A DNA stretch of 6,738 nt from Chlamydiota bacterium (GTDB taxonomy: Bacteria > Auribacterota > JACPWU01), in assembly GCA_016196885.1 (NCBI GenBank), contig JACPWU010000066.1, positions 1-6,738 on the forward strand, written 5' to 3'. A model generated the notes under the pieces. The model did no database searches and was not told where the DNA came from. It saw only the letters and a program-made list of their open reading frames with translations. Position numbers and translations under genes: made by a program. How positions within the stretch are numbered: the first letter of the stretch is position 1; the number at the start of each line of letters is the position of its first letter. Below, in pieces: positions 1-6,738 of this stretch.

Positions 1-1
1 A

Positions 2-418
2 GAGGAGATGCCTATTTTTATTCATCAGGTTGTTCCAATTGTCCAGGTTCGGCCTGATGATTATGTTTTTTCGCTCAATGAAGAGACGGGGAAAATTGAG
101 CTGCACAGGATTATGGGGCTGATGGACATGGGGGTTAAGCCCGTGTTTCGGCTCACCACCGCCAGTGGAAGAAGTATTCGGACAACGGCGAATCATCCGT
201 ATTTAAAGAGAATCATGGATCATGGACAAGAAAAGGATCATGGATCATGGATGATGGATGATAGAAAAGACAAAAACACTTCAAATCCACCCTCCACGAT
301 CCAAGATCCATCATCCGTTTTATCCACTCCACCCTCCACGATCTATCATCCATTATCCGCTTCTCATTGGACCCCCGTGAGTCGGCTTCATATTGGAGAT
401 AAGATTGCGGTGCCAAAA
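2..418 (+). other. Hint/intein N-terminal splicing lobe. The first residue and block A lie upstream of the window. The lobe carries a repeat insert at 212-364.
   Basis: Translation is ...DDYVFSLNEETGKIELHRIMGLMDMGVKPVFRLTTASGRSIRTTANHPYLKR[insert]HWTPVSRLHIGDKIAVPK. The block B TxxH (T 185-187, H 194-196) and the following W..V..L..GD.IAVP strand match canonical mini-inteins as I recall them (Ssp DnaB: GRTIKATANHRFLTIDGWKRLDEL..HIALPR). Spacing to block B implies that Cys/Ser1 lies about 10-15 codons upstream of position 1. Confidence 0.8.
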
Positions 419-3400
419 CTTGCTCGTCTAGATTTCTTCGAGTCTCTGGATCGCACGTTTAATGATGGCAAAGCTTACGAACAGTCTACTTCGGAGATAG
501 AGGTCTTCGAGCGCTTTTTTTGCTTCGGACGAAGTGAGCCATTTGTGTTTGACAGAGTAGGTGATGAGTCCAACAGTTCCATGGACCTCAATTCTCAATT
601 GCTTAGCGATAGTTCGAGCAGCGAGATCATCAGTGAGGAGGATCAAGGGTCTCTCTTCAAGAGCTATTGTCAAGCAGTCAGTTTCACCGCGATGAAGATG
701 ACCCTTTTCAAGGGCGGCTTCCAAGGTGTGTGGGACAGATTTAGGGGTGGAGACGATTGTTACATTGGCCCATTTTTCAATGACACGATGACTTTCACGA
801 GGAATGTGTCGAGCTGTTTCTTCGATGACACTCACTGGGATCATGATGTGAGAGAGGTGCTTCAGAAGGGACAAACGACCTATTTCTTCCAAATGGATCA
901 GTGGACCGGCGTCGACGACCCATCTATGCATTCAGACCCCACAAGACATCTTCTTGAACAGCCTGATCTTGTTTCTCAGCAAGTTGAACAAGTTCATGAC
1001 CCAGAAGGCGAATGGCTTTTCGGCGGGAGAGTCGCTTTGCAAGATAATGTTCAAGAACGGAATCTTGATAGAGCTTGGCCAAGCCCAACTCCAATGCCTC
1101 CGTTAGCACAGCCAATGGCGTTTCATGACGGAGCTTGGCCAATTCTTCTAGCTGGGCCGGTAGGGGCTGGGACATCATACGCATCTTCTCCTTTCATTGC
1201 TTTTACTGACTATACTTATAGCACATTGCCTGCATCACGGTCAAAGAGAGAACTTGATGTTAGGCGCTTATCTAAAGCCAACACAGACATCCTCTGGGAC
1301 CGTATTCAATCCATAGAATTGACTGGCTTCGAGAGGGTTTACGACATTGAAGTGGAAGGAACTCACAATTTTATTGGGAATGGAATTGTGGCGCATAATA
1401 CTTATATTACCTCTCTTTCCCCAATACATGCTGTGGGGCAAAGTGCTTCTCCCCCTTCTATAAAAGAAAACGAAAATTTGCGAGATGAAGAAGAGAAGGG
1501 CCAGGTCGCTGTTGAATATATACTGCTTTTACCTCTCCTGATTCCTCTTTTGGTGTTGGGGCTTCCTCTTTATATGGGGATTAGATTGTTTTGGTCCAGG
1601 CGTGTTCGTGTGCCTGCTCAATCATTATCTCCCTCTAATCTTAGGGCTTATCAAAATCTGCTCATCGAGATCGATCCGGAGAATGAATCACATTATGAAA
1701 CTTGTGCTGGGATGGCGCATGCTTTTGAAGCCTTGCCGGGTGGGACTCTAGCATGTGTACGTCAAACAGGCCGTCAGTTTTTCCTGGGACAATCGGGAAG
1801 AGTGATCATCAATCAAAATGAAGTTGTCGGTTTGAGCGTTTTGGCTCACGAATATGCCCATGCAGATCCCAGGGAACCCCTTCCAGCCTTTGTGACAGGC
1901 GGCTCCTTTGCTGAGCTTTTTGAATCTATTTATAGGCGCTTAATTGCAGATGAGGTTCAGGCGTTTGAGGCTGAGATTCTCTTTGCCAAAAAATTTAAAG
2001 AAAAAAGAAACCAGAGCCTGTGGGATTTGCCTTCTGAATCGGGTGTCAAGTCCATGATGGTCGGGCTTGAAGCTATTTATGATGAGCAAGGTCGCCAGGG
2101 GATTCAGACCTGGCTGGAAAGAGGTCATTATCTCACTTATAAGCTTCAAGCGCTCAAAATGGCGGCCTTGTTCAGGGCAGGTGCTTTAGATAAAGACATG
2201 ACCAACCTAGAGCCTTTGGGCCAAGGGGGCGAAAAAATAGAAAGGGATTTGATTGAAGAACTTTGGAATGCCCTTCGGCCTCAACTCACTCAAAATCCCT
2301 TGGGTGTTTTAAATCTGTCTCGTCAGCCAGGAATGAAAAGGGCCATCCGAAAATTTTGGGATGTTTCAAAAAGAACTGGGGCCCTAGAGCTAGAGGACAT
2401 TGATTTTTTGAGAAATGATTTTGACAAGGTTGTCACCTTTGTCGGGGTTTTGTTTGGGGAACCGGTTCCTGAAACGGAGAGCTCTTCAGAAAAAGTGGAC
2501 TCGGGTTCTCAACAAGTGATTCATCCCCTTTTTAATCAGCCTTCACAATCCTGGTATGAGTCCAGTCAGGGGACCTTGGATGAGACTCAAGCCGAAAATC
2601 ATCTGGCCCGTTGGCAGTTTTTGGCGCAGTATAAGATTTTGGCTTCTGTTTTAGATTCTGTAGGGGTGATGGAAGCCCTTTTGCCACTTGTCTCCTCACA
2701 GGATCAAAAGAGAATTTTGAGCGATCTCTATGAAAGGGTCCAGACAGAGCCTCTGGAATTGTATCACGTGGCTAAAATAGGTGCCTCTCATGGTTATTTA
2801 GAGGCGAGCCATGAATTGCTTGAGAGGGCCTTTCAGCATCCTGAGAATTTTCCGTTACGAGTTGGCGGTCGTTCTCTTTCTCATTTGCTGGAGTTGCTAG
2901 AGATTTTTGACCAAAGAAGAAATGATGAAGGCAGGAAGAGGGTGATCGCTCTTTTGACCCAATATGTCGAAAGAAGGGGTCTGGATGATTGGATTTATAC
3001 TTTCAGATATATATTACGGAGGCCTTTTAAAGAGAATGAGGTCGATGAATTAAGGGCCCATGGAAAGGAGGTCATGGATCATTCATGGATTGCAATGAAT
3101 CCAGAGCGCATTCATGAAATATTGGGATGGGAGCCGAAGGATCATTATCGAAATTTTCTGATTTCTGATGATTCCTTTAAACGTCTAGAATCCCTTGATT
3201 CTGCTCTTAAAAATTTAGAAGTTAAACCGTCCCTATCCTCAGCTTCTTCGCAAGCGGTCAGTGAATTAAGGGCTCGCCTCAAGGGTCATTTATCTCATTT
3301 GGCGATGGCCTCGAAAAGTGATTGGAATAAATTGAGTCAATCGGGTTTTGGCTCCCCCGATTTTTATCAGGGACTTCCTCCTCTTCAGGATTTGAAATTG

Positions 3401-6400
3401 GGTGAGGATCGTTTTTCAAATTATGTTCATAGTGAACTTACCATGGTAAGTCTTTCCTCGTCTCACCCGTATCTTGAAAATCTAAAGCATTTCTGCTCTT
3501 TTAAGGATGTTTTGAAATTTTTGAGTCAGTTAGATCCCTTGTTCTTTCACGCCCCTCTTTTTACTTGGGTGGGAGAGAATCTGGATCAATGGCCACAGTC
3601 TGATGCGGCTCGTTTGATTCAAGTGTGGGAACAATGGGTGAAAAGAGCTCATCGGCTGTCAGCGAGATTTCACTATCAGGGATATACGAAATTTTATGAT
3701 CAGCAGATGTTCCTCCAAGGACTTTCCTCTGCCTATCAAAGTCTTTCGTCTGCATCCTCTTTCTTACAATCCCCCGAGGGAATGCATTTACATTTGTCCC
3801 TGGCTGAAGGATGGCTTAAATCTTCGGATCCTCTTCTCAAAGCAAAAGCCGGGGCAATTTTGGAAGAGGTCCAGTCAAAATCTGCTGCCGCATTTTGGTC
3901 TCCCCGAGGTGATTACGACACTAACACTTATTTTTTCTCACAACATACAGGCTTTTGGATTGCAAAGGCCTGGCTATTAGATGGGATACAGGGATCTGGA
4001 GGATTAGTCGCTCTCAATAGGGCCTATGACATTCTCTCAAACCCCTCTCAAAGACTTCATACCGCCGCTCAAGTTTCAGAGTGGATTGAGCTTTTATTGG
4101 ATTTGGCTTTGGCATTTGAGCGGGAGGGGGATTTTCGTCAAAGAGCAGCCTGTGAGCAGGCGGCTTATAATTATGTTCAAGAGATGGATCGCTTGATGCG
4201 TTCGGAGGATTTTAGAGCAAGAGATTCCAGGTATAACAATAAACCCAAAAAGTCGGACGCCCTTTTACAGCATCTCCAAATGACTTATCAAAAAAGTCAG
4301 GCCGTTTACAGAACAAAGCTGGCCATTCAACAAAATTCGAGACAGGCTCTTACGACGGGACTAGCGCCCCAAGGTGAATTTAAAGATTACAGCTATCGCC
4401 AGTTCTTGGCCATGGCTAGAGAATTGTCTCAAGCCCATTGGAATCTAGAATTGATTCAGGTGCTTGAAAGAATGATTGTACAAGTCAGGGCAAGATCGGG
4501 CTTTGAAATCGAGGGAGAACAAAATATCGTAAGTTCGATTCAAACATTTTTTGAAGAGGAGAATTCTTTTGTCCAAGTCGTTTTGAATGCCTCACTCTCT
4601 CCATTAGAGAAAGATGATTGGATTTTACGATATGCTCAGGCCGTGATCGGCGAGGAAGAAAGCATTTTAGCCAAAGGAGACATCAGTTCTTTGGCGAGAG
4701 TAGCTCGTGGGTTTGAGCCTTTGTTAAAGGCGGTTCGGGATGGAAAATGTCCACGCTCAGAGGCTTTTTTACTCAAAAATTTGGCAGAGGCATTGGATGA
4801 CTTGAAAGCGACTTATCCCAACTTAGTTGAGGGTGGCGTTCAAGCCTTAGCCCCTTTGGTGAGGGGGCTTGAAGAATCTCATCCAGAGCTTTTGCAAAGC
4901 GGGAAAAGAGAGGCCTATCAGGCCTTGCTGCCCGAAAATCAAGCGCTTCGCCAGGCCCTGGATGTTTTATTTCCGGCCGAAGATGGATCTGAAATAACTC
5001 GTTTATCACAAAATCTTTATGAAGAGGCCATGGAGGCGCTTAAGTTAAAAATGCAGTTGGAGGGGTTTCATCAATCTAATATAAATATATCTTTCTACAC
5101 TCGTCTTTCCTTGGATGAGTTAACAGGGTTAAAGAGCTTTGCAGTTTTGAGGGGAAAGATGACCGCTTCAAGTGATGGGCCTCTCGACTCATTCCTAGAA
5201 AATCCTAAGAGGGTTCGTGAGGTCTTGATTGGAGAGCCTCCCGACTCCATGCGGGCCCAGGTCTTTTCTCCCCTTTTAAGGGAAATATTTTTGAAATCTG
5301 GAAGTCCTGAGGTTCGGGCCATGGCTGTTCAAGGCCTGATTGTAGCAGGCTATTTGGGAAGTTATGCAGAGCATCTCTTTAAAAAAAATACGGCCTCTCA
5401 GCAAAACCTCTATCGTATCTTGGAGGCCGTCGCCGGGGAATTTGCCTCTCCCATCCCCGATGAATTGTTTGCCTTGTATGATGAATCTTCTCCAGCGATT
5501 CCGGAGTCATCTTTAAAAAATCTAAAATTCATTGAATACATTCGTTATTACAACAAATCAAGTAAGCCCTTACTTATACATGTCGATTCCCTAGCTCCCA
5601 CCATTCAGGATCCCCAGGCCGAACTTCTCATTCTAACGGTTTTTTCTCATTATAATGAAAGTTGGCTACAGGATTATACCCAAGACATTGTAGATGCCTC
5701 CAAAACCTTAAAAACGCGTCTCAGGGTTAAAATGTTTTTGGAGACGACGACGCTTCCCAAACCTTTACAGGATTTGCCCGAGACCCTGAAATTTGTTTTT
5801 GCCATTTTCTTGTTTCAAAATCCGGATATCCTCTCCCGATTCAATGCCTATTGCCGCGAAAATTCCAAGCTTAGCCAAGGCGATTTATTGTGTGCATTCT
5901 TTAGAATGGCCCATGCCGAAAAACTCGCTCAAGCGCTCGCCAACTGGCCCGGACTGCTTCCTCCTCCTCTCCAAGAGGCTCTGGCCCAAACGCAGCAGGA
6001 CAATGAGCCCATTTCAGAATTGGAATTCTTAATGGATTTAAACGAGGCGCTCGGAGGAGACTATCGGGACCCTTTCAGTGAAATTGACTGGTCCAGCCGC
6101 AAGGTGGGGTCGGTGGCGGAGGTGGTCCGGGCGAAACGCAAGGACACTGATAAATGGGTCGCGATTAAATTAATTCCCTCAAGGAGGATGAAAAGGATGG
6201 AGCGGCATCTTGAGGGAATGGAAAAACTCTTTGAAGTCTTGTCCCTTTACAAAGACGAGAAATTTAGAGGCGTAGATCCCGCTCTCTTTGGAAAGGAATA
6301 TATCCGGAGCTATCGCCAAGAATTGGATTTAAGAAATGAGGCGAAAAATGTAAGTGTGATGCAGCCTGTTTTTCAAAGAATAGGTCAAGTGAGAATGCCA

Positions 6401-6738
6401 AAATATCAAAGTCAATACACGCGGCCTCGGCTTTTGGTGATGAGCTGGGAGGAGGGGACGCCTCTCAAGGCTCTTGCCCCTGATGAAGTGAAAAAGGCCG
6501 TTGAGGCCTTGAGCCGGCTCGTGATAGACGGCATTTTTCAAGAAGGGGAGATTTTGGATGATCTTCACAGCGATAATATCCGTTGGGATACAAAAGGGCA
6601 AAAACTGATTGTCTGGGACTTTGGACGCCTAAGCACGATTACAGAATTCGATCGGGATATTCTTCTGGATTATCTATCAGCCATTTACCAGAGGGATGCG
6701 AATGGGATAATTCAGGCCCTCCAAAAAATGGCGGATCC
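2..6738 (+). CDS. Giant multidomain protein, internal fragment partial at both ends. Order: Hint/intein domain, linker, TM helix, HExxH module, long helical region, ABC1/UbiB-type kinase domain.
   Basis: Hand translation of frame 2 shows no TAA, TAG or TGA across all 2245 codons. Recognisable motifs at 167-205, 1286-1399, 1847-1861 and 5918-6625 all lie in this one frame. The sequence looks protein-like throughout. No start or stop lies in the window, which explains why the ORF track omits it. Confidence 0.85.
212..364. repeat. Composite repeat and dyad-symmetry insert inside the intein N-lobe.
   Basis: Four tandem heptamers, (GGATCAT)x2 then (GGATGAT)x2, occupy 235-262, with a partial copy at 212-226. 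A perfect 16-nt direct repeat TCCACCCTCCACGATC occurs at 286-301 and 328-343; these head an imperfect 42-nt tandem duplication (286-327 and 328-369). Inverted matches: 249-259 GGATGATGGAT pairs with 306-316 ATCCATCATCC (11/11), and 249-264 pairs with 343-358 (15/16). Confidence 0.85.
428..931 (-). CDS. PIN-domain toxin, DUF3368/COG2405-like (VapC-like ribonuclease).
   Basis: The 167-aa ORF has an N-terminal VVDAGPLIHLEEIGRLSLLKHL..IPVSVIEE and a C-terminal GETDCLTIALEE..LILLTDDLAARTIAKQLRIEVHGTVGLI. These match the conserved acidic and PIN-like motifs of DUF3368 proteins as I remember them. Its ATG overlaps the stop of the upstream small ORF (ATGCATAG at 931-924), the usual type II TA arrangement. 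Confidence 0.8.
   Translation of the reverse strand: MHRWVVDAGPLIHLEEIGRLSLLKHLSHIMIPVSVIEETARHIPRESHRVIEKWANVTIVSTPKSVPHTLEAALEKGHLHRGETDCLTIALEERPLILLTDDLAARTIAKQLRIEVHGTVGLITYSVKHKWLTSSEAKKALEDLYLRSRLFVSFAIIKRAIQRLEEI
924..1184 (-). CDS. Putative antitoxin, UPF0175/COG2886-like small DNA-binding protein.
   Basis: This 86-aa ORF lies immediately upstream of the PIN gene and overlaps it by 8 nt. The segment LEHYLAKRLSRRKAIRLLG..LVQLAE resembles the UPF0175 helix-turn-helix core that typically pairs with DUF3368. AGGAG at 1192-1188 is only 3 nt from the first ATG, so the in-frame ATGs at 1178 or 1175 (9-12 nt spacing) may be the real start. Confidence 0.65.
   Translation of the reverse strand: MRMMSQPLPAQLEELAKLRHETPLAVLTEALELGLAKLYQDSVLEHYLAKRLSRRKAIRLLGHELVQLAEKQDQAVQEDVLWGLNA
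1188..1192 (-). promoter_or_regulatory. Shine-Dalgarno sequence for the antitoxin.
   Basis: The minus strand reads gaaAGGAGaagATGcgtATGATG. Confidence 0.5.
1215..1244 (-). promoter_or_regulatory. Sigma70-like promoter for the TA operon, embedded antisense in the intein ORF.
   Basis: The minus strand reads TTGACC (1244-1239), an 18-nt spacer ending in TGc (extended -10, T1223 G1222), then TATAAG (1220-1215). This places it about 30 nt upstream of the antitoxin ATG. A GCAATG direct repeat at 1229-1224 and 1200-1195 flanks the -10 and could be an operator. Confidence 0.5.
1262..1399 (+). other. Hint/intein C-terminal splicing lobe (blocks F and G), ending in His-Asn. The +1 residue is Thr at 1400-1402.
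   Basis: Translation is RRLSKANTDILWDRIQSIELTGFERVYDIEVEGTHNFIGNGIVAHN|T. This matches canonical block F/G (Ssp DnaB: DIYWDSIVSITETGVEEVFDLTVPGPHNFVANDIIVHN|S) and lies in the same frame as the N-lobe. Confidence 0.85.
1517..1582 (+). other. Predicted single transmembrane helix.
   Basis: The hydrophobic stretch YILLLPLLIPLLVLGLPLYMGI is preceded by an acidic linker (ENENLRDEEEKGQ) and followed by the basic cluster RLFWSRRVR, consistent with the positive-inside rule. Confidence 0.6.
1847..1861 (+). other. HExxH (HEYAH) zinc-metallopeptidase-like motif.
   Basis: The context is GRVIINQNEVVGLSVLAHEYAHADP, with acidic residues downstream (FAELFES, IADEVQAFEAE) that could supply a third metal ligand. 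It loosely resembles minimal metallopeptidase modules such as DUF4157. This is a motif-level call only. Confidence 0.35.
5918..6738 (+). other. ABC1/UbiB/ADCK-type atypical protein kinase domain, continuing past the window end.
   Basis: EKLAQALANWPGLLPPPLQEALAQTQQDNEPI aligns with the KLGQ.LS.R.DLLP....EL..LQD.VPP lead-in. SEIDWSSRKVGSVAEVVRAKRKDTDKWVAIKLIP matches PiAsASiaQVHrA....VAvKV. The family signature ELDLRNEAKN lies at 6320-6349. LLVMSWEEGTPL, DLHSDNI (6563-6580) and WDFG (6614-6625) are also present. Confidence 0.8.

Follow-up and report, generated by a model that had tools for sequence, protein, structure and literature searches.

How can genes with their own promoter, start and stop codons live inside the coding sequence of another gene without cutting it short? 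This question is raised by a stretch of 6,738 nucleotides from a Chlamydiota bacterium (GTDB lineage Bacteria; Auribacterota; JACPWU01; assembly GCA_016196885.1, contig JACPWU010000066.1, positions 1 to 6,738 of the forward strand), which we refer to in its entirety as the window. Frame 2 of the plus strand is free of stops throughout (positions 2-6736, 2245 codons) and runs off both ends, and within this part of a giant gene the two lobes of an intein enclose a toxin-antitoxin (TA) operon carried on the minus strand. A preliminary description had proposed that such an operon sits antisense where an intein would carry its endonuclease, with the plus frame remaining open; the coordinates, the lobe hidden Markov models (HMMs) and a match to the Pfam intein model bear this out. 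We think it probable that the locus is a nested selfish element, in which a TA cassette is lodged in the intein loop as a safe harbor and probably stabilizes the intein in turn. The features that carry the argument are the following.

Positions 2-205, plus strand: intein N-terminal lobe (N-lobe), partial; lobe HMM match over 29-205 (112 bits, E 1e-34), with block B (...TTANHPYL) ending at 205.

Positions 365-418, plus strand: last β-strands of the N-lobe (W-TPVSRLHIGDKIAVPK), with ...HIGDKIAVPK ending at 418, directly before the loop.

Positions 419-1261, plus strand: sense filler peptide of 281 codons, stop-free and domain-free, predicted to leave with the intein.

Positions 924-1184, minus strand: antitoxin gene, 86 aa, of a conserved family that pairs with DUF3368 toxins.

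Positions 428-931, minus strand: toxin gene, 167 aa, DUF3368 type with a predicted PIN fold, codon-aligned with the plus frame.

Positions 1188-1244, minus strand: putative TA promoter and ribosome-binding site, with a -35 element TTGACC at 1244-1239, a TG-extended -10 element TATAAG at 1220-1215 and a Shine-Dalgarno sequence AAGGAG at 1193-1188.

Positions 1262-1399, plus strand: intein C-terminal lobe (C-lobe), comprising ...DILWDRIQSIE..., block F VYDIEVEGTHNF and block G GIVAHN; HMM match over 1289-1402 (81.6 bits).

The plus frame matches Pfam Intein_splicing (PF14890) with 69.8 bits against a cutoff of 35.8 (3e-19) and TIGR01443 intein_Cterm at aa 446-467 with 41.7 bits against a cutoff of 15.6 (9e-11), and TIGR01445 intein_Nterm gives a weak match at the N-lobe. 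The lobes themselves were placed with HMMs built from the conserved lobes of related inteins. The T-x-x-H of block B, block F, and the His-Asn of block G followed by a Thr at position +1 (GIVAHN/T, where the slash marks the intein border) are all present, and the nearest relatives of this intein are from Omnitrophota. The strands that precede the loop carry the W.KV..L..G.EIAV pattern, the sole conserved feature over 77 linkers of related inteins. As had been noted at the outset, the cassette fills the slot almost end to end, leaving 9 nt from the end of the N-lobe to the toxin stop and about 17 nt from the -35 box to position 1262, and the plus-frame linker is devoid of an endonuclease motif: it gave no match in Pfam or NCBIfam, and thus neither a LAGLIDADG or HNH domain nor any other endonuclease domain. 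The intein loop is dispensable for splicing, as seen in mini-inteins and in engineered inteins that carry foreign domains at the same position, and inserts at this point leave with the intein rather than remaining in the host protein, provided that translation is not interrupted.

The lodged operon has the layout of a type II TA module, namely, two small, adjacent and co-oriented genes, the antitoxin first, whose open reading frames (ORFs) overlap by 8 nt (ATGCATAG), with a promoter and a ribosome-binding site upstream. The antitoxin ATG, read from the sequence, is at 1184, and the promoter spacer is 18 nt long and carries the TG; this layout (TTGACx-18-TGnTATAGT) is kept 5' of the antitoxin in eight loci with GC contents of 0.44-0.65. 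The positions first proposed for the antitoxin (1184-924), the toxin (931-428), the -35 element (1244) and the Shine-Dalgarno sequence all hold.

By homology, predicted fold and a match to a phage defense candidate, the toxin is PIN-like. Its 20 homologues (40-53% identity) are all precomputed as PF11848 (DUF3368), an annotation that is also given to the window toxin itself, and their alignment has 32 invariant columns, with D7, E38, E83, D101 and D102 invariant over all 20. An AlphaFold model (pLDDT 89.4) retrieves PIN domains as its top PDB matches in Foldseek (VapC4 5h4g, SMG6 and HARP; probability 1.00, TM scores 0.5-0.58), Nmd4 also being among the PIN-domain matches, and the phage defense candidate PDC-S70 of PADLOC matches residues 1-166 of 167 (1.9e-23). 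The expectation that a family search would place the minus-strand ORFs was upheld in part: the toxin is PIN-like by the above routes, but its own hmmscan match to DUF3368 reaches 14.8 bits against a gathering cutoff of 27.3 (E 0.028), its match to PIN_4 is likewise below the cutoff, and DUF3368 is matched at E ≤ 0.01 in 6 of the 20 homologues. The antitoxin belongs to an uncharacterized family. It aligns with 16 partners at 37-60% identity, members of the family are always found 5' of these toxins, and they share a conserved C-terminal D-x-x-W-G-L motif (DVLWGL in the window). The window antitoxin has no match in Pfam (E ≤ 0.1) or NCBIfam, and an exact look-up of the protein found it not to be on record; RHH_1 is matched by 3 of the 16 relatives, which suggests that some members are ribbon-helix-helix-like. 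Its earlier assignment to UPF0175 (PF03683) has to be given up, as the window protein is unmatched and a single one of the 16 homologues reaches that family, at E = 0.21.

The codons of the two lodged genes show how the plus frame stays open. Because the toxin is codon-aligned with the plus frame, stops in that frame would be TTA, CTA or TCA codons of the toxin, and it has none of these among 23 Leu and 11 Ser codons; in the host extein, TTA and CTA supply 18% and 8% of the Leu codons and TCA supplies 16% of the Ser codons. When synonymous codons were resampled with host usage, both proteins being held fixed, the plus frame remained open across the toxin with a probability of 1.5e-4 and across the antitoxin with one of 0.046, and the whole stretch was open in none of 20000 resamplings and in none of 3000 in a second simulation. 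The same codons are present, 1-20 in each, in 22 free-standing homologues, including those at GC contents of 0.64-0.68, and are absent from all 9 toxins of the close, intein-associated clade; a long open antisense frame is likewise found only in the close clade (1086-1860 nt versus 675 nt or less elsewhere). The open plus frame over the cassette is not due to chance.

The same TA family recurs in this setting at other loci. We took four further contigs with close toxin homologues (43-52% identity), which come from different samples and span GC contents of 0.44-0.65. In three of them (L116, L117 and L118; toxin identity 43-51%, GC 0.44-0.64), both lobes of this intein family enclose the TA pair, which is antisense to an open sense frame; the flanks read ...TTGNHPYL...W.KV..L.VG..IAV... 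and ...ILWD.I.SIE..VYDIEVEGTHNF..AHN/T. The fourth (L115; GC 0.65) holds a partial N-lobe only, consisting of block B and the following strands. A further locus, L006:215-1777 (minus strand, GC 0.48), has a 1563-nt open frame that begins with a block B-like GNHPYF and spans two TA pairs on the opposite strand, DUF433/DUF5615 and DUF3368, with no C-lobe after it; it resembles an intein in decay whose cassettes are still in place. Searches of viral contigs retrieved no toxin relatives and a single close relative of the intein, giving no sign of phage carriage.

A census of related inteins places the window in a wider setting. A search with the lobes gave 116 protein matches, mostly from Omnitrophota, Patescibacteria, Elusimicrobia and DPANN, and among GTDB species representatives 375 relatives were found, of which 78 loci were taken for analysis. 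The sense frame is unbroken in these homologous loci as well: 80 of 82 pairs of N-lobe and C-lobe are in the same frame, and all 80 are stop-free over linkers of 297-1671 nt. The splicing residues are kept, with the block A Cys in 65 of the 80 (C[VI]TGDTLLP) and HN/T in 71, and by these motifs the related inteins look complete and competent. About 33 of the 80 carry at least one antisense TA pair and 3 carry two, so that the window is no singleton but one member of a widespread class. The lodged pairs span at least five families (DUF433/DUF5615, ParE, HicAB, PemK and DUF3368), and the Pfam domains recognized among the antisense ORFs, besides the DUF3368 type, are these.

DUF433: 21 inteins, antisense; best Pfam E 1.7e-25.

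DUF5615/Mut7-C: 19 inteins, antisense; best Pfam E 2.3e-13.

ParE/RelE, with several antitoxin types: 14 ORFs in 13 inteins, antisense; best Pfam E 4e-7.

HicA: 1 intein, antisense; Pfam E 1e-18, with a weak HicB-like partner (E 0.0089, below the cutoff).

PemK/MazF: 1 intein, antisense; Pfam E 1e-16.

DUF5647: 1 intein, antisense; Pfam E 4e-18.

As a control, we counted ATG-started ORFs of at least 80 aa and found 65 antisense versus 11 in the two alternative sense frames. No recognized cassette is present in 31 of the 80 inteins. About 12 inteins have a single small antisense ORF with two transmembrane segments. These inteins, which are mostly from Patescibacteria, have linkers of about 500 nt, and the ORF is 66-85 aa long with two hydrophobic helices (e.g., L088:2879-3388, L101:2018-2608, L041:2441-2953, L106:499-1002 and L078:2519-3058); one such ORF gave a weak match to DUF6722, and their third-position bias is weak, making their coding status uncertain. 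At the other extreme of size, two tandem antisense cassettes share one loop in L054:2099-3502, L051:217-1563 and L045:4175-5845, with the sense frame open over as much as 1671 nt; their contents are two ParE pairs, DUF433/DUF5615 with HicAB, and a ParE pair with DUF433/DUF5615, an array-like arrangement.

Patterns of codon change in these cassettes indicate which strand is under selection. We paired related cassettes and counted codons that differ at one position by their antisense codon position. Such differences fall at positions 3, 1 and 2 in the ratios 470/124/39 for DUF433, 260/75/39 for DUF5615 and 87/16/9 for ParE, and synonymous changes are in large excess in the antisense genes. The third-position bias and the synonymous excess together imply that selection acts on the protein products of the antisense genes and not on that of the sense filler; in the sense frame, it preserves only the absence of stops, and under host codon usage the probability of an open frame is <0.01 for most TA-bearing linkers. 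Of 90 antisense genes, 88 are in the two phases in which synonymous changes can remove sense stops, that is, phase 0, where TTA, CTA and TCA are forbidden, and phase 2, where the constraint is on the wobble base of the preceding codon.

Lobes and cassettes have had different histories. Lobe identity is 0.72 between cassette groups, the same as within groups, and lobe identity is uncorrelated with TA identity (rho 0.05), a value on which co-inheritance of lobes and cassettes was rejected. Single genomes also contain inteins with different cassettes. Given that cassette type is independent of lobe phylogeny and that cassettes are mixed within genomes, we infer that cassettes have been exchanged among inteins.

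The remainder of the window holds two further features.

Positions 1400-6736, plus strand: C-extein of the giant host gene, starting with the Thr at +1, with a transmembrane-like stretch soon after the intein.

Positions 204-362, no strand assigned: N-lobe insertion, in frame and about 160 nt long, with direct and inverted repeats, palindromic and MITE (miniature inverted-repeat transposable element)-like, separate from the TA cassette.

An ABC1 atypical kinase domain is found near the end of the extein (about 6032-6718; Pfam 8e-30), and a homologue search with the part of the extein at 1403-3802 came back empty, so that the extein is an orphan. The insertion sits between block B and the W..V..L..GD.IAV strands and is missing from related inteins. 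Its repeats (D1, D2 and I1-I6) include direct repeats at 281-320/323-362 (83%) and 206-226/231-251 (90%) and inverted repeats at 231-265 versus 286-320 (77%); the DNA folds into a hairpin no better than its shuffles do (z = -0.96). The peptide signature of the insertion, GSWIMD...PPSTIHHPLS, recurs between blocks F and G of the P0041 intein. Judged by its repeats and this recurrence, it looks like a palindromic mini-element that also enters inteins in frame.

The reading that we favor, a TA cassette harbored in an intein loop, would work as follows. The giant gene is interrupted by an endonuclease-free intein whose family is common among Omnitrophota and Patescibacteria (candidate phyla radiation, CPR), and the dispensable loop of this intein holds a 0.84-kb cassette that would be read on both strands. 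On the minus strand, the cassette's own promoter and Shine-Dalgarno sequence would drive a translationally coupled antitoxin and PIN-fold toxin. On the plus strand, a ribosome translating the host gene would pass through the cassette and make about 280 aa of meaningless filler; this read-through is possible because the toxin is codon-aligned and lacks TTA, CTA and TCA codons and because the antitoxin avoids codon junctions that create stops. Protein splicing would then remove the filler together with the intein, making the cassette costless to the host protein. The antisense placement would thus allow a gene with its own stop codon to sit inside another ORF while synonymous choices keep the host frame open. 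The conserved lobes probably act as homology arms, and cassettes would be swapped between intein copies, most simply via recombination. The TA pair probably penalizes loss of the intein-bearing allele, i.e., it would act as an addiction module, and it may also serve phage defense, a role that the PDC-S70 match leaves open.

One alternative is that mobility or drive, once powered by a homing endonuclease, now depends on the toxin nuclease, which would act either by cleaving intein-free alleles or transcripts or as part of a toxin-antidote drive. Something does spread these inteins: their lobes are 60-100% identical across phyla and there are several copies per genome, yet LAGLIDADG, HNH and GIY-YIG domains were found in 0 of 77 sense-frame linkers. 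Most of the lodged toxins are nucleases (PIN, DUF5615, ParE/RelE, HicA and PemK), and 7 of the 77 sense linkers have an in-frame NYN domain (PF01936, a PIN-like nuclease; best E 3.6e-25), which could represent an undescribed type of intein-borne nuclease in the endonuclease slot; the NYN-bearing linkers probably include L082:561-1400 (compare the NYN-annotated intein proteins P0045 and P0047). However, toxins of these families act as RNases or poison gyrase and are not site-specific DNA endonucleases, and with at least five unrelated TA families in the slot, the shared property is the TA module and not a target specificity. Of the 80 inteins, 31 are cassette-free and about 12 have the small membrane ORF alone, and TA identity does not track lobe identity. 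We therefore regard a replacement engine as improbable. Several inteins of this family occur within single genes or contigs (L088, L101, L102, L106 and L076), often at a repeated extein motif (...KLHVEGQ/C...HN/TYISGNVGIGTTSP...). This placement suggests that, with no homing endonuclease, the family spreads from one repeat unit to another in large proteins of the surface type.

It is also unlikely that the locus is a decaying relic in which the TA genes are nonfunctional or the giant ORF is a pseudogene, the dual open frames being inherited and not maintained here. The homologues of the window TA pair are only about 50% identical to it, so that recent selection in this lineage is not measurable, L006 and L115 look partly degraded and yet hold cassettes, and the extein is an orphan. 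Set against this, the catalytic and other invariant residues, the promoter, the Shine-Dalgarno sequence, the start codons and blocks B, F and G are all intact, and the sense frame is unbroken over 6.7 kb and ends in a good ABC1 domain. Very unlikely, in our view, is that the cassette is mainly an antisense regulator, with transcription from the TA promoter colliding or pairing with the mRNA of the giant gene and the TA proteins secondary. A conserved, outward-facing promoter inside the host ORF, convergent with the host gene, is what such a role would use, but regulation does not need the protein-level purifying selection seen in the antisense ORFs as third-position bias and strong Pfam matches, and a regulatory role specific to the host is hard to square with host genes that vary widely from one intein to the next. 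Among the three roles suggested in the preliminary description, an addiction module or lodger fits best, whereas replacement of the endonuclease and antisense regulation are without support. Metagenome assemblies may in principle misjoin repeats, and nothing else was found in favor of a chimera or inversion at 419-1261, against which an independent 1139-nt Logan contig, reported in 2 samples and identical to the window across both junctions, together with the recurrence of the architecture in unrelated samples and dozens of metagenome-assembled genomes, excludes a chimera, just as chance shadows of the sense frame, which would not yield Pfam E values of 1e-16 to 1e-25 or a PIN fold, can be dismissed.

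Several observations weigh against the TA cassette as a lodger that stabilizes its intein, or narrow the ground on which this view stands. The block A region is upstream of the first base of the window, which places the N terminus of the intein, with its block A Cys, outside the window. A strict σ70 consensus scan of 300-1450 found no site, as the window promoter is subconsensus; the scan missed it because its rule demands a T at position 6 of the second hexamer. The window antitoxin is in the rare and harder phase 1, being one of the 2 exceptions among the 90 antisense genes. Because no homologues of the extein were found, neither an intein-free allele nor the precise point of insertion can be demonstrated. 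The 80 inteins include near-duplicates (L049/L050, L057/L058 and L088/L101), so that independent counts are somewhat lower, and the 31 cassette-free inteins mean that a TA pair is not needed for persistence of the intein. Finally, three high-GC loci of the same TA clade (L002:1-1086, L003:2-1861 and L005:1-1770) have zero TTA, CTA and TCA codons and an open antisense frame, and relaxing the HMM settings did not bring out any flanking lobes at them; hence the cassette is found outside inteins as well. In L002 and L003, the open antisense frame continues into the signal peptide of the next gene; a neighboring gene in L002 bears an intein, and at L015 a weak C-lobe lies at a distance of 1.4 kb. 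These three cassettes either escaped from inteins or occupy another kind of host ORF.

Comparison with known systems brings out what is particular to this arrangement. A full-text literature search, in which subscription journals are thinly covered, found no published description of TA genes inside inteins. The window intein resembles canonical large inteins with LAGLIDADG or HNH domains in its Hint lobes (blocks B, F and G; HN/T), in its insertion point and in the size of the insert (about 280 aa), and differs from them in that the lodger is an antisense two-gene TA operon with its own promoter and the sense product is filler. In the fractured genes attributed to Dassa et al. (2009), split inteins reportedly have a free-standing homing endonuclease ORF between their halves. 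These resemble the window in having an independent selfish ORF, complete with start and stop codons, at the endonuclease position of an intein, but in them both the intein and the host gene are split in two; the window intein can remain contiguous because its lodger occupies the opposite strand and leaves the sense frame open. VapBC-like type II TA modules (DUF3368; PDC-S70) share the antitoxin-first overlapping operon, the PIN fold and the conserved acidic residues. Unlike in those modules, the cassette is embedded in the frame of another gene, its codons are constrained by the opposite strand and the antitoxin is not UPF0175. TA cassettes are carried on plasmids, in chromosomal integron arrays and on integrative and conjugative elements, where they are thought to prevent the loss of mobile or dispensable DNA. 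The variable cassette between conserved flanks, with some inteins holding two, is a further point of likeness; in contrast to all of these platforms, however, the platform here is a protein-splicing coding sequence that imposes an open-frame constraint on the other strand, and no integrase or attC-like site was seen at the intein cassettes.

The nearest precedent is ShiLan, which is inserted in frame in DNA methylase genes of phages and conceals an HNH endonuclease gene in another reading frame (Arsenault, Gosselin and Gogarten 2025, PMC11855218). ShiLan shares with the window a selfish gene in an alternative frame of an insertion that is stop-free in the host frame; its hidden gene is a same-strand endonuclease and it has no splicing domains, so that its filler stays in the host protein (PMC11855218). 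Here the lodger is an antisense TA pair between intein lobes. Long antisense overlapping genes are also described in bacteria, e.g., in Pseudomonas aeruginosa (PMC8850804), and like the window they have ORFs of hundreds of codons on both strands. In those cases, the embedded gene overprints a functional mother gene (PMC8850804), while in the inteins the antisense genes are old and conserved and the sense frame is only kept open.

These inteins point to a way for independent genes to live harmlessly inside another gene, by antisense placement, frame-preserving codons and the splicing out of the filler, and they rank among the clearest natural examples of bacterial DNA that codes over long stretches on both strands, with one strand selected as protein and the other only for being stop-free. 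They also expose a systematic annotation error, in that gene callers either break up the host gene or overlook the TA genes, and they suggest a design rule for hiding cargo genes in engineered inteins. We would put not quite an even chance on the broader proposal that inteins of this family offer, in their loop, a general and so far unrecognized integration platform for antisense cassettes, in effect a cassette system within coding sequence. Such a platform would accept many TA families, small membrane proteins and tandem cassettes, with the lobes as portable homology arms, protein splicing concealing the cassette from the host protein and an open-frame filter shaping the codon usage of every lodged gene. 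If so, TA cargo would make endonuclease-free inteins hard to lose. The arrangement offers a testable answer both to the persistence of such inteins and to the spread of TA genes in the small, packed genomes of uncultivated bacteria.

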